Source: Escherichia phage vB_EcoM_G2248
DNA: 64,000 nt
Direction: 5' to 3' (one strand)
Sequence record: MK327932.1
Under the pieces are notes generated by a model. The model ran no database searches. It saw only the letters and a program-made list of their open reading frames with translations, and was not told the origin of the DNA. The position numbers and the translations under genes were made by a program. Below, in pieces: positions 2,727 to 29,929 of this stretch. Position 1 is the stretch's first letter; each line of letters starts with the position of its first letter.

Positions 2727-4589
2727 TTACATGTGCTTAACGCGGTTTACCATCTCGGAGTGTTTCCCGTGGTTGAATGGACGCAGATCAACAGATCCAA
2801 GATATCCACTAACGCGACGGATAACATTCATCTTTTCCAGATTGTCATTGCCGCAATCAGGACAAACAAAACCAGACTCGGTCGCTCTCATTTCCTTAGT
2901 AGATCCGCATACATGACATACATCAGAAGGAGTATTAACACCGAAGTAGTGCAATTTATCCATTGCATAGTCTACTACAGTTTCAAGACCTTTCAGGTTG
3001 TTTTTCATGTCTGGGAACTCAACATAAGAGATCATGCCACCGGACGCCAGCCAGTGATAATCTTTCTCAAAGTCGATTTTCTCAAATGGAGTGACTTTCC
3101 GGTCTACGTCAAGGTGGAATGAGTTGGTGTACCAGTCTTTATCGGTAGCACCCTTAACAATACCAAATTGCTCTCGGTCCAGTCGATTAAATCGATAGCA
3201 AAGGCTCTCGGCTGGCGTACCGTAAAGACTAAACCCAAGTCCGGTTTCATCCTTCCATTTTTCAGTATAATGACGCAAGATCTTAAGAATATGTTTACCG
3301 TATCGCTGCGCATCTTCCGAATCAAACGGATGAACACCAAACAGGACGCTCAATACCTCATGTAAACCAATATATCCAAGAGAGATACTAGCGCGACCAT
3401 CTTTCAGAACTTCCAAAATTTCATCGTTTTGATGAATACGGAAAAATGCACCTTCTGTATACAGTACAGGAGCAACATTGGCTTTAGCCCCTTTTAAAGC
3501 GTCTACGCGACTCATGAGCGCATCAAAGCAAATAGGCATACGATTAGCTAGCTCTTGTTCGAATAGCTCAATTCTGCGCATTACAGACGCTTTACCAGCA
3601 CGACGCGCGGCAATAAGGGCAATACGCGGAAGATTTAGAGTCACAACACCTAAGTTATTACGTCCGTCTAATACTTCTTCGCCTTTCTCATTATGCCACA
3701 CACCCAGGAAGCTACGACAACCCATCGGGCTAACCGGAACACTAGATCCAGTGATACTACGGTTATTCTTCGCAGAGATATAATCAGGGTAAAGACGCTT
3801 ACTAGAACATTCCAATGCAAGTTGCTTAATGTCGTAGTTCGGATCTTCCGGTTTAAGGTTTAATCCTTCTTCTAAGAACATCACCAGCTTAGGAAACACC
3901 GGAGTTATACCGTCTTTACCTAAACCTTTAGTTCGAACTTTCAGGATCGCTTTCTGAATCAGTTTTTCTTCCCAGCTAGTACCCATACCAAAGGTTAAAG
4001 TCACAAAAGGCGTTTGACCGTTGGTGGAGAACAAAGTGTTGATTTCATATTCCAACGCTTGATACCCGTCTAGCGTTTCTTTTTCTGTCTTCTCTTGTGC
4101 ATAGAGAGTATCAGCTTTGATTCCGTAGGTTTCGGCATCAGCAAGGTGTTTATGATATGTTTTCTCAACGTATGGCGCTAAAACCTGATCGATGTTTGCA
4201 ATTGTGGTCCCGCCATATTGATGACTTGCCACCTGTGCGATAATTTGAGCGGTTACAGCACAAGCAACGCCGATCGATTTCGGACTTTCGATTTGTGCGC
4301 TACCCAATTTAAAACCATTCTCTAACATGTCTTTGAGATTAACAAGACAGCAGTTAGTAAACGGCATAGCGGGTGCATAATCCATATCATGATAATGAAT
4401 ATCACCATCTACATGCGCTTTATAGATGTGCTCAGGTAACACGGTTTTAGCAATCTGTTTAGACACAGCACCAGCAATCAGATCTCGACGTGTCGGGAAT
4501 GTTCGCGCGTCTTTGTTCGCGTTCTCTTTGCTTACTTCGTTTTCTTTACCCGTTGCGATCTCTGTAATGTCTTTGATTAGTTTTTCCAT
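2727..4589 (-). CDS. nrdD: anaerobic ribonucleoside-triphosphate reductase (glycyl radical enzyme)
   Basis: 620 aa; C-terminal zinc site CPDCG and glycyl radical motif RVSGYLG; single uninterrupted ORF. Confidence 0.9.
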   Translation of the reverse strand: MEKLIKDITEIATGKENEVSKENANKDARTFPTRRDLIAGAVSKQIAKTVLPEHIYKAHVDGDIHYHDMDYAPAMPFTNCCLVNLKDMLENGFKLGSAQIESPKSIGVACAVTAQIIAQVASHQYGGTTIANIDQVLAPYVEKTYHKHLADAETYGIKADTLYAQEKTEKETLDGYQALEYEINTLFSTNGQTPFVTLTFGMGTSWEEKLIQKAILKVRTKGLGKDGITPVFPKLVMFLEEGLNLKPEDPNYDIKQLALECSSKRLYPDYISAKNNRSITGSSVPVSPMGCRSFLGVWHNEKGEEVLDGRNNLGVVTLNLPRIALIAARRAGKASVMRRIELFEQELANRMPICFDALMSRVDALKGAKANVAPVLYTEGAFFRIHQNDEILEVLKDGRASISLGYIGLHEVLSVLFGVHPFDSEDAQRYGKHILKILRHYTEKWKDETGLGFSLYGTPAESLCYRFNRLDREQFGIVKGATDKDWYTNSFHLDVDRKVTPFEKIDFEKDYHWLASGGMISYVEFPDMKNNLKGLETVVDYAMDKLHYFGVNTPSDVCHVCGSTKEMRATESGFVCPDCGNDNLEKMNVIRRVSGYLGSVDLRPFNHGKHSEMVNRVKHM

Positions 4590-6384: not shown

Positions 6385-6422
6385 GATGGGAGTATCTTAC
6401 TACTCCCGTTTCATCATGTCAA
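6385..6422 (-). promoter_or_regulatory. PeSL-like early promoter with palindrome GGGAGTAGTAAGATACTCCC
   Basis: TTGACA at 6422..6417 overlaps the stop codon of the upstream gene. Confidence 0.5.
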
Positions 6423-7296: not shown

Positions 7297-7332
7297 TGGG
7301 AGTATTTTACTACTCCCATTTCATGTTGTCAA
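7297..7332 (-). promoter_or_regulatory. PeSL-like early promoter with palindrome GGGAGTAGTAAAATACTCCC
   Basis: TTGACA at 7332..7327, -10 TAAAAT, palindrome spans the -10. Confidence 0.5.
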
Positions 7333-21039: not shown

Positions 21040-21375
21040 TTATCCTTTCTTAAACAAATTGCGAATCCAGTATACAAACGGGATTTCTTTAAACTTGAAT
21101 TTCTCTATAGTTAATTCTTTAGTAGCAAGATGAATACCATAAGCATCATGTGTCACGATATGCCATTTTCTATAGTCCAAATGTGAACAACCGTCTGGAT
21201 CTAGGTTAATAAGAGTTTCTCGCTCACTAGGATTATTTTTCCACAATTTTGTAATAGGATCGCACATAATTCGACCTAGCGTACCATGAATAATCTCACA
21301 ACGGTAAAGTTTTCCAGCAGTGAGATAGGCGCACCCGTCATAGTCGGTATAAACAAACACTTCTTTAATACTCAT
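21040..21375 (-). CDS. hypothetical protein (GCSHL paralog family)
   Basis: Start at ATG 21375 with RBS AAGGAG; motif DGCSHLDYRKWHIV. Confidence 0.45.
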   Translation of the reverse strand: MSIKEVFVYTDYDGCAYLTAGKLYRCEIIHGTLGRIMCDPITKLWKNNPSERETLINLDPDGCSHLDYRKWHIVTHDAYGIHLATKELTIEKFKFKEIPFVYWIRNLFKKG

Positions 21376-21390
21376 TTTAATACTCCTTTG

Positions 21391-21432
21391 TTTCGATGGG
21401 GGTATATTACTACCCCCGTTTTGTTGTGTCAA
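21391..21432 (-). promoter_or_regulatory. PeSL-like early promoter with palindrome GGGGGTAGTAATATACCCCC
   Basis: TTGACA at 21432..21427; the palindrome spans the -10. Confidence 0.5.
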
Positions 21433-21678
21433 CTACTTTTTCAAGATTTTTTTAATTGCGTTCCAAAGACCTTTATTCTCAGGTTGTTTTGGTTCTTCGA
21501 TCAGTGTCCATGTTCGACCGTCTAAGTGTGCACAATTTTTAAGACAAATAAAAATCTGGTGTCCCTTATCATCACGGATATAACCACTATTCGCAAATCT
21601 TTCATGTGGTGTATATTCATACAGTGTATTTGGTGTAATATACTTGCGGTTACTATAAGGTGTCATCACATACATCAT
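21433..21678 (-). CDS. hypothetical protein (GCSHL paralog family)
   Basis: Motif NCAHLDGRTWTLI; start placed at ATG 21678. Confidence 0.4.
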   Translation of the reverse strand: MMYVMTPYSNRKYITPNTLYEYTPHERFANSGYIRDDKGHQIFICLKNCAHLDGRTWTLIEEPKQPENKGLWNAIKKILKK

Positions 21679-21869
21679 GGTACTAACTCCCAACGATCAC
21701 CGCGAAGATGAGAACATCCACCATCAAGAAGTATCGTAATACGATAACCTATATCATCTTTGATGTAACCGATTGTCGGTGGATTTTCGTCGTCTCGTGC
21801 CGGGGTAAAATCATACATCTTTCCGGGCGTAATATCTTGTCCTTTATTACTATTGGTATAAACTTGCAT
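21675..21869 (-). CDS. hypothetical protein (GCSHL paralog family)
   Basis: Motif GGCSHLRGDRWELV; RBS AGGAGA before ATG 21869. Confidence 0.45.
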   Translation of the reverse strand: MQVYTNSNKGQDITPGKMYDFTPARDDENPPTIGYIKDDIGYRITILLDGGCSHLRGDRWELVP

Positions 21870-21890: not shown

Positions 21891-22589
21891 CTAACCACGG
21901 GTATAGTGTTCCAGAACAACGGTCAGATGAATATATTCTAATAGATCTTTCCAAAAGTCAACATCTGGTTCTTCCGGCATACCGTTTTTCTTTGCCTCTT
22001 CACGCGCGAGTTTAACACGCTCGTAGAGATCTTTCAATTCTTCCCGCACATTATCAAAGGTTCTTTCTCCTAACTTACACGCTAAGATAGAAGAACGTCG
22101 CGCGAGCGGGAATTGTAGATCACCAGTTTGATAGATTTCAAGTAGCTGATAACCAACACGCAGAGCATGAGAAAGATCTTTCCAGTTACTGAAATACTTT
22201 TCAGATTTGGCTACCTGTTTCTTGAGATAACCAGACAAACCCCACATACCAACATGATAGAATTTATCGCGATGTGTTCGGATGTATTCCCATTCTCTGG
22301 AGGATTCGATCAACATGTTACTAGGCGCGTGCACCATATCAATAGCGCCGATATCACCTTTACATGCCAGATTGATAAACCGTTTTAGACTGAACATATT
22401 AACGTCAATATCGTCTTTGGTGTTCTTGATACCTTGACCGCTAGTGCTTTGGTCATAGTGTTCTTTCATCGATCCTAAGATAATTTCTTTCGCAGTCGGA
22501 ACAAAGATACCACGATAATCTTTATCGGAATTTTCAGTATCAAGGCCGTATAAGTGAGATCCGAAGACCATTTTAACCATTGTATGCAT
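21891..22589 (-). CDS. Pol-beta-superfamily nucleotidyltransferase
   Basis: N-terminal signature FGSHLYGLDTENSDKDYRG (GS-x9-13-D-x-D); RBS GAGGG. Confidence 0.55.
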   Translation of the reverse strand: MHTMVKMVFGSHLYGLDTENSDKDYRGIFVPTAKEIILGSMKEHYDQSTSGQGIKNTKDDIDVNMFSLKRFINLACKGDIGAIDMVHAPSNMLIESSREWEYIRTHRDKFYHVGMWGLSGYLKKQVAKSEKYFSNWKDLSHALRVGYQLLEIYQTGDLQFPLARRSSILACKLGERTFDNVREELKDLYERVKLAREEAKKNGMPEEPDVDFWKDLLEYIHLTVVLEHYTRG

Positions 22590-22632
22590 AATTAAACCCT
22601 CAGTTGATTAAGAGATTGCATCATATCATCAT

Positions 22633-22665
22633 AAAACGAAAAAGCCAACCCTTTTCGGATTGGCT
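22633..22665 (-). terminator. rho-independent terminator downstream of the GrcA-like gene
   Basis: Hairpin AGCCAATCCGAAAAGGGTTGGCT followed by a T-run on the minus strand. Confidence 0.6.
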
Positions 22666-22675
22666 TGATGAAAAA

Positions 22676-29880: not shown

Positions 29881-29929
29881 TTTCGTTTGTTTGTGGGGGT
29901 ATCTTACTACCCCCGTTTCATGTTGTCAA
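29881..29929 (-). promoter_or_regulatory. PeSL-like early promoter with palindrome GGGGGTAGTAAGATACCCCC
   Basis: TTGACA at 29929..29924; the palindrome spans the -10. Confidence 0.5.

Follow-up and report, generated by a model that had tools for sequence, protein, structure and literature searches.

We analysed a stretch of 64,000 nucleotides (nt) from Escherichia phage vB_EcoM_G2248 (MK327932.1), hereafter termed the window, focusing on three small adjacent genes, A, B and C, which fill the slot between nrdC.11 and regB. Sequence comparison identifies the three genes as homologous, each encoding a domain of ~60 residues that recurs across many phage types. The best explanation for the whole, to which we assign about an even chance, is that they are anciently diverged paralogs in a recombining slot encoding SH3-like binding modules made early in infection. 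The source phage belongs to Krischvirus (RB49/Phi1/JSE-like), a group of T4-type coliphages in which ORFans of hyperplastic regions with promoter-early stem-loops (PeSLs) are already known; the domain family itself is undescribed though widespread. The three open reading frames (ORFs) and motifs quoted by the initial annotation, which was made from the DNA letters, could be recovered exactly, as the minus-strand translations of A, B and C contain DGCSHLDYRKWHIV, NCAHLDGRTWTLI and GGCSHLRGDRWELV verbatim. The features of the locus are as follows.

21675..21869, minus strand: gene C (ORF097 of phage Phi1), 64 amino acids (aa), a bare domain; from ORF call and annotation
21433..21678, minus strand: gene B (Phi1 ORF096), 81 aa; from ORF call and annotation
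21398..21432, minus strand: PeSL cassette between B and A; from promoter scan and hairpin
21040..21375, minus strand: gene A (Phi1 ORF095), 111 aa; from ORF call and annotation
21891..22589, minus strand: nrdC.11, RlaP-type nucleotidyltransferase, upstream border of the slot; from annotation, with PF10127 on the orthologs in contigs L007, L012 and L013
20613..21035, minus strand: regB, site-specific endoribonuclease, downstream border of the slot; from annotation, with PF10715 on the orthologs in contigs L007, L008, L012 and L013

Pairwise Smith–Waterman alignments (BLOSUM62) were compared with 2000 residue shuffles as a control for composition. The B–C pair scored 104 against 22.8 ± 4.1 for the shuffled sequences (z = 19.6) and the A–C pair scored 51 (z = 6.3), in both cases with 0/2000 shuffles as good, and the A–B pair, weak when taken alone, scored 43 (z = 3.6; 11/2000 shuffles as good). 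The PHROG profiles linked all three proteins, with phrog_6261 matching A (1.1e-37, residues 3–76), C (1.3e-28) and B (6.3e-6), and phrog_15978 matching B (6.9e-61) and C (1e-7). Within the ~60-aa domain, the motif triad (L/I)TxGKxY, GxIxDDxG and CxHLx4W aligns in A, B and C at mutual identities of 29–42%, with two departures, as the DDxG hairpin of A reads CD...SE and B has TPNT in place of TxGK. Based on the shuffle z-scores together with the cross-matching PHROG profiles, the similarity is homology by sequence and not an effect of composition, so that the initial description of A, B and C as paralogs of an uncharacterised small protein stands, its significance being kept under composition control. 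The conserved Tyr/Asp-rich upstream segment of that description is equally real and corresponds to the N-terminal strand, the following loop and the (L/I)TxGKxY motif. No fourth copy was found in the 64-kb window.

The three proteins differ in what they add to the domain. Gene C encodes an acidic protein with an isoelectric point (pI) of 4.75; it starts 21 nt downstream of nrdC.11, with which both C and B are co-oriented, its Shine–Dalgarno sequence (SD) contains GGAG at −13, and its TGA stop and the ATG start of B overlap within ATGA. In B the domain comprises residues 1–62 (21493–21678), followed by the carboxy-terminal tail EEPKQPENKGLWNAIKKILKK (21436–21492), which ends in a basic amphipathic helix. 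In A the domain comprises residues 1–77 (21145–21375) with an insertion of 10 aa in the DDxG hairpin, and the extension of residues 78–111 ends in the amphipathic FVYWIRNLFKK and a final Gly. The last codons of A contain the SD of regB, whose ATG follows the A stop after 4 nt. Against the hidden Markov model (HMM) of the family, B scored 3e-33 and A 5e-20. An internal duplication in A (DYDGCAYL versus DPDGCSHL) was considered and rejected, the N-terminal GCxYL being a family-wide motif and A having no second domain hit.

To delineate the wider family, a profile built from A, B, C and a few word-index relatives was run against 1.84 billion representative proteins, yielding 477 clusters (50% identity) at E ≤ 1e-3, including 21 at E ≤ 1e-10. 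The protein is thus no peculiarity of this locus, as the family extends to at least 477 such clusters across many phage types. Domain hits were obtained in 165 of the retrieved proteins, of which 107 do not exceed 75 aa (median length of the 165, 68 aa), and most members are phage ORFans of 57–70 aa. The standalone members are acidic, with a median pI of 4.67 and 85% below pI 6. The domain also occurs as two to four repeats in a single polypeptide (P0023, P0027, P0030, P0146) and as the N-terminal part of fusions with unrelated domains, among them DUF3850/ASCH and a weak Tad2-like match. Both phrog_6261 and phrog_15978 are also hit by more remote homologs and by fusion proteins. In other phages it is found in dense arrays of small ORFans, and contexts without a nearby regB include a T7-like contig, where it follows endonuclease I, a 560-kb contig and further ORFan arrays.

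PHROGs agrees with our grouping in that A and C match phrog_6261 end to end and B matches phrog_15978, with cross-matches in both directions, but it splits one domain family into these two entries, both of 'unknown function', gives neither function, fold nor context, and does not record the tandem genes, the varying slot content or the tails. Scans of A, B and C with Pfam, NCBIfam and PADLOC returned nothing meaningful; Pfam had no family for A and only sub-threshold unrelated matches at E ≤ 1 for B and C. FosA-like matches of A were rejected as noise (E ~1e-3 over 20 residues, 19 bits versus cut-offs of ≥180). Among 148 members scanned against Pfam, weak and scattered matches appeared for DUF6501 in six (best 7e-5), DUF7244 in one (0.0047) and Tudor_5 in one (0.00095). 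A sequence-profile search of the PDB found no relative, tblastn of a family-consensus peptide against the phage collection gave no match, and tblastn with C returned Krischvirus only, plus a marginal Klebsiella phage match. A related-locus search with a narrow family alignment likewise returned one Krischvirus locus only, and no member carries a name other than 'hypothetical' in the sources searched. Separately, ST68 of phage T1, an early gene (L011 3619–3993), carries only the N-terminal half of the motif set (TxGKxY ... DDxG) at E = 3.5e-4 in a single-genome search; by sequence it may be a remote relative or a chance match.

Conservation was calculated from 171 domains. The first motif, (L/I)TxGKxY (T 95%, G 81%, K 93%, Y 99%), is followed by a segment variable in both length and sequence, and then by GxIxDDxG (G 61%, I 90%, D 65%, D 95%, G 88%) and CxHLx4W (C 89%, H 84%, L 87%, W 98%). 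The frequent Cys and His at fixed CxHL spacing, which the initial annotation had proposed to check for a metal site, would suit small zinc- or iron-binding proteins, perhaps with help from the extra Cys of an N-terminal DYDGC (column 15), which is present in 32% of domains including that of gene A, or with ligands from a second subunit. Most standalone members have one to three Cys, and tandem copies or fusions could assemble an inter-domain Cys2His2 site. However, each domain offers only two conserved candidate ligands, one Cys and one His, where at least three or four would be expected, and B and C lack the N-terminal Cys. Moreover, 13% of domains carry Phe, Tyr or Trp at the His position and 9% have Ser at the Cys position, and natural alleles without the His occur in intact genes, with SCAYLDD in B (P0016, P0017, P0009) and GCVYL in A (L013). 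Such aromatic-for-His and Ser-for-Cys swaps fit packing beside the invariant Trp, and we consider a metal site improbable.

The arrangement of the three genes was compared with that of related phages. The genes A, B and C are present in 58 Krischvirus records at 90–99% DNA identity, the surrounding 2-kb region being 98–99% identical to ~58 genomes of the group (RB49, Phi1, JSE, GEC-3S, ELT3 and others), and two allele types of B, CAHL and CAYL, occur within Krischvirus. Four further T4-like contigs contain the slot between the genes for the RlaP-type nucleotidyltransferase and RegB, with the following contents in order.

L012: 66 and 87 aa, then a PeSL directly before regB, without an A-type gene
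L013: 64 and 81 aa, a PeSL, and 100 aa
L008: 83 and 112 aa
L007: 83, 85, 121, 155 (two domains in one polypeptide) and 86 aa, all five matching the family HMM at 7e-7 to 4e-40

Across these related contigs the slot thus holds 2, 3 or 5 genes, equal to 2–6 domains. In T4, the equivalent slot (the helical vs.3, vs.4 and vs.5) and the other small genes there are unrelated to the family, and a scan of T4 covering 1–50 kb detected no member. Each of the three genes has closer homologs in other phages, with A showing 44–50% identity to P0196, P0177 and others (P0196 lying after endonuclease I in the T7-like contig), B 47% to P0138 and P0028, and C 62–64% to P0018 and P0025. The initial annotation had proposed a local triplication, of which the paralogy holds and the recency does not: given the mutual identity of 29–42% and the closer homologs elsewhere, the sequences indicate an old, dynamic array of variable copy number, possibly rebuilt by cassette exchange. 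Outside the slot, contig L012 (ena:ERZ27235521 k119_34593) carries a 73-aa gene (3777–3998) upstream of nrdC.11 with a weak match to the family HMM (E = 1.4e-6, small search), which from its sequence may be a further diverged copy.

Two alleles point to how such arrays change. The 83-aa gene P0009 (L008 45–296, ena:ERZ16268176 scaffold_28569) is identical to C in 38/39 of its first residues (136/140 nt) and to a B allele in 49/50 of its last 50 residues, with the junction in the GYIKDD common to both paralogs. By its sequence it is a C/B recombinant, in which homologous recombination between paralogs has joined two genes and left the array one gene shorter. The A-type gene of L013 (5298–5600, logan:DRR827189_8135) has its domain replaced by GHGCVYLHDHQW, lacking the hairpin insertion and reading GCVYL for GCSHL, and retains the tail KFKFKEIPFVYWLRNLFK identical to that in the window. 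With an overall identity to A of 42% and flanking nrdC.11 and regB at 91–92%, this gene is, as judged from these identities, a mosaic within itself. In addition, A is present or absent behind the PeSL, as seen from L012 versus L013 and the window.

The promoter cassette that the initial annotation had assigned to one copy is indeed present, ahead of gene A. A promoter scan placed a −35 element TTGACA at 21432–21427 and a −10 element TAATAT at 21409–21404, separated by a 17-nt spacer (10/12 matches). The −10 element is enclosed by the hairpin GGGGGTA-GTAATA-TACCCCC (21417–21398; 7-bp stem), with a minimum free energy of −15.3 kcal/mol (z = −3.35). The pattern has four matches in the window at ≤3 mismatches versus 0 expected by chance. 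Further elements of this type lie on the minus strand at 6388–6422, 7298–7332 and 29895–29929 (TTGACA ... GGGAG/GGGGG-TAGTAA-N-ATAC-TCCC/CCCC). The element ahead of A is annotated as a promoter in GEC-3S and is kept upstream of A or regB in L012, L013 and L007.

PeSLs were described to act as early promoters and terminators and to mediate ORFan shuffling (PMC2839356, Arbiol et al. 2010), a study that does not mention ORF095–097 or regB. The present locus resembles the PeSL and ORFan cassettes of the RB49/Phi1 hyperplastic regions (PMC2839356; PMC4122927, Comeau et al. 2014) in coming from the same phage group, in the combination of a sigma-70 promoter with a G/C-run hairpin ahead of A, in its small ORFans, and in that relatives may have or lack the gene behind the PeSL. 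It differs in having a single PeSL between nrdC.11 and regB, so that A is not flanked by two as in the mini-circle-forming cassettes, and in that its ORFans are paralogous and recombine directly, a mode which the PeSL model does not include. A second composite signal, different in type from the PeSL, is located between vs.6 and nrdC.11 (22620–22666, minus strand), where a terminator-like hairpin (10 pairs, then a T-run) and a promoter-like site (TTGGCT, 17 nt, TATGAT) overlap; by its sequence, this site probably starts the nrdC.11–C–B transcript.

The proximity to regB raises the possibility that the proteins are RNA-binding accessory factors of RegB, tuning for instance which GGAG sites get cut. 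GGAG is the RegB target motif known from T4, and it is contained in the SDs of A, B and C and lacking in those of regB and nrdC.11. All T4-like loci recovered have the array directly ahead of regB, with A 4 nt from regB and carrying its SD; one homolog is fused to the ASCH-like DUF3850, labelled RNA-binding by PHROGs; and KOW and Sm are examples of SH3-like barrels that bind RNA. However, GGAG is part of any strong SD, which makes the sequence link to RegB suggestive only. The family is also found in phages without a nearby regB, T4 has regB but unrelated helical proteins in the slot, and in L012 regB directly follows the PeSL without an A-type gene. The acidity of the standalone members is likewise atypical of nucleic-acid binders. 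Taken together, we regard a role as RegB cofactors as a slim chance.

We next turn to the predicted fold. The AlphaFold2 (AF2) model of C was obtained with a mean predicted local distance difference test score (pLDDT) of 88.5 and a predicted template modelling (TM) score of 0.74, and comprises strands at residues 2–4, 18–22, 33–37, 43–47 and 61–63 as well as a short helix at 53–55 at the CxHL motif. The resulting order is SH3-like: the first strand and a long loop lead to the second, a variable loop to the third, the tight DDxG hairpin to the fourth and a 3-10 turn to the fifth. The model of A (pLDDT 74.6) shows the same strand order, with a poorly predicted hairpin insertion, an additional strand and a tail helix at 101–107 of low confidence. 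The best PDB structure matches of C were SH3 domains (Abl2, Crk, Csk and the SH3 insert of Pif1), which were not significant (E 0.44–0.6, TM 0.44). Among the predicted viral structures of BFVD, dozens of uncharacterised proteins match the C model at TM 0.6–0.8, many of them at 0.7–0.8; their sources are T4-, T5- and T1-like phages as well as further phages that infect enterobacteria, Vibrio, Pseudomonas, Acinetobacter, Listeria and other hosts. Based on these models the domain is most likely an all-beta, SH3-like barrel of ~60 residues; as the PDB matches were not significant and the T1 protein ST14 (DUF7244) did not match the family HMM, we did not assign it to any SH3 Pfam family.

DUF7244 has been placed in the SH3 clan and tied to the lysis cassette of T1-like phages (Drexlerviridae; PMC13164509, 2026). 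Its standalone SH3 proteins resemble the present family as ~60-aa phage proteins with a predicted SH3-like barrel, and they are BFVD neighbours of the family, the DUF7244 protein of phage MM01 matching C at TM 0.67. A cell-wall-binding or lysis-auxiliary role, as proposed there for the T1-like proteins, could thus be considered for A, B and C as well, the more so as one family member matches DUF7244 (E = 0.0047). In contrast to this likeness in fold, no significant sequence relationship connects the two, since DUF7244 did not match A, B or C at E ≤ 1 and the family HMM gave no match to ST14 at E ≤ 10, the family motifs CxHLx4W and TxGKxY being absent from ST14. The N-termini, read by eye, are unlike signal peptides. 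Whereas DUF7244 sits in a lysis cassette, A, B and C are placed behind early sigma-70 promoters in an early region with nrdC.11, regB, vs.1, vs and tk as neighbours and not holin, endolysin or spanin genes. A lysis role is therefore highly improbable.

Signatures of selection were obtained from eight Krischvirus genomes. The ratio of nonsynonymous to synonymous substitution rates (dN/dS) was 0.19 for C, 0.21 for B and 0.17 for A, versus 0.027 for nrdC.11 and 0.064 for regB. The synonymous rate (dS) was raised for B and C, which suggests, from the sequences, exchange of divergent alleles. In the viable isolate FL04 (PP358550.1; L018 1656–1781), grown on E. coli MG1655, gene C is shortened to a coding sequence of 41 aa, and frameshifted metagenomic variants exist for C (P0010, 40 aa) and B (P0020, 51 aa). 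As far as these sequences indicate, the three genes are real, constrained and fast-evolving, and in view of the truncated C of FL04 and the frameshifted variants they look individually dispensable. That the resemblance of A, B and C is a matter of composition or chance, or that the ORFs are not genes, could appeal to the weak A–B score, but is already refuted by the B–C and A–C scores, the cross-matching profiles, the 477 homologous clusters, these dN/dS ratios and the confident AF2 folds, and has next to no probability.

We now return to the reading of A, B and C as early SH3-like binding modules. The scaffold with variable loops, the occurrence as single, tandem and repeated copies, the fusions, the ORFan arrays and the acidity of the standalone members together argue for this idea. 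Recombination in the slot, between paralogs and at the PeSL cassette, would add, delete, fuse and swap copies. Expression would come from sigma-70-type early promoters, with C and B read together with nrdC.11, and A and regB transcribed from the PeSL. The proteins would be cytoplasmic and dispensable, under purifying selection yet fast-evolving, each copy forming a small binding module whose scaffold is conserved and whose loops vary. Such a module would bind a host or phage macromolecule early in infection, a protein being more probable than a nucleic acid, and binding would serve host takeover or counter-defence.

A and B would additionally be targeted by their basic amphipathic carboxy-terminal helix, possibly to the inner membrane, with C remaining soluble. 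The last 11 residues of B (LWNAIKKILKK) have a hydrophobic moment of 0.78 and a charge of +4, and the near-terminal FVYWIRNLFKK of A a moment of 0.67 and a charge of +3. The membrane-targeting helix of E. coli FtsA, scored alike, gave 0.78 and +4, and basic amphipathic tails are also found in P0028, P0031 and the 87-aa gene of L012, with moments of 0.67–0.79 and charges of +3 to +4 overall. The A and B tails are comparable to membrane-targeting helices of the MinD and FtsA kind, resembling that of FtsA in moment and charge, a purely physicochemical likeness that implies no homology. By this analogy we propose, with low confidence, that the tailed copies A and B are tethered to the membrane or another surface and that C is soluble.

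Several points weigh against this functional interpretation. The idea of binding modules draws only on the predicted fold class and on context, and the conserved DDxG turn, together with the conserved G, I, L and W, may serve the structure alone. The target of the amphipathic tails need not be the membrane, the prediction of a tail helix in A is of low confidence, and the conservation of the A tail may in part be due to the embedded ribosome-binding site of regB.

A bolder form of the binding-module interpretation, which we consider speculative and rather unlikely, would see the nrdC.11–regB slot as a diversifying binder array, whose reshuffled SH3-like copies each neutralise a different host or defence factor, some of them at the membrane via the tail. 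If so, the CxHLx4W domain would be a new and widespread anti-host module, and the slot a counter-defence locus that follows the logic of anti-CRISPR or T4 internal-protein loci.

Much of what is unexplained among the genes of T4-type and other large phages consists of small early ORFans; three of these are placed here in a single family, spread over many phage types but lacking a Pfam entry or solved structure. The locus provides a natural series of two, three and five genes, along with a two-domain fusion, a paralog recombinant and a domain-swapped allele, showing both expansion and reshuffling, and adds direct recombination between paralogs to the published PeSL mechanism. Should the proteins inhibit host factors or defences, the family would represent a large new source of such modules; otherwise, the family definition and the corrected reading of the 'metal site' would still be useful.

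All genes of the 2-kb region lie on the minus strand, and with Phi1 names the order of transcription is vs.8, ORF100, vs.6, nrdC.11, ORF097, ORF096, ORF095, regB, vs.1, vs, tk.4 ... tk. ORF095, ORF096 and ORF097 are annotated as hypothetical in Phi1 and RB49, and likewise in nearly all records. In Shigella phage JK32 (MK962753.1; L019 2099–2437) the A ortholog is labelled 'endoribonuclease / Endoribonuclease RegB', apparently an annotation error carried over from the adjacent true regB. An HNH endonuclease gene is inserted between vs.6 (GrcA-like) and nrdC.11 in L018 (269–862), L019 (269–862) and L013 (3532–4059), and is absent from the window, RB49 and Phi1.

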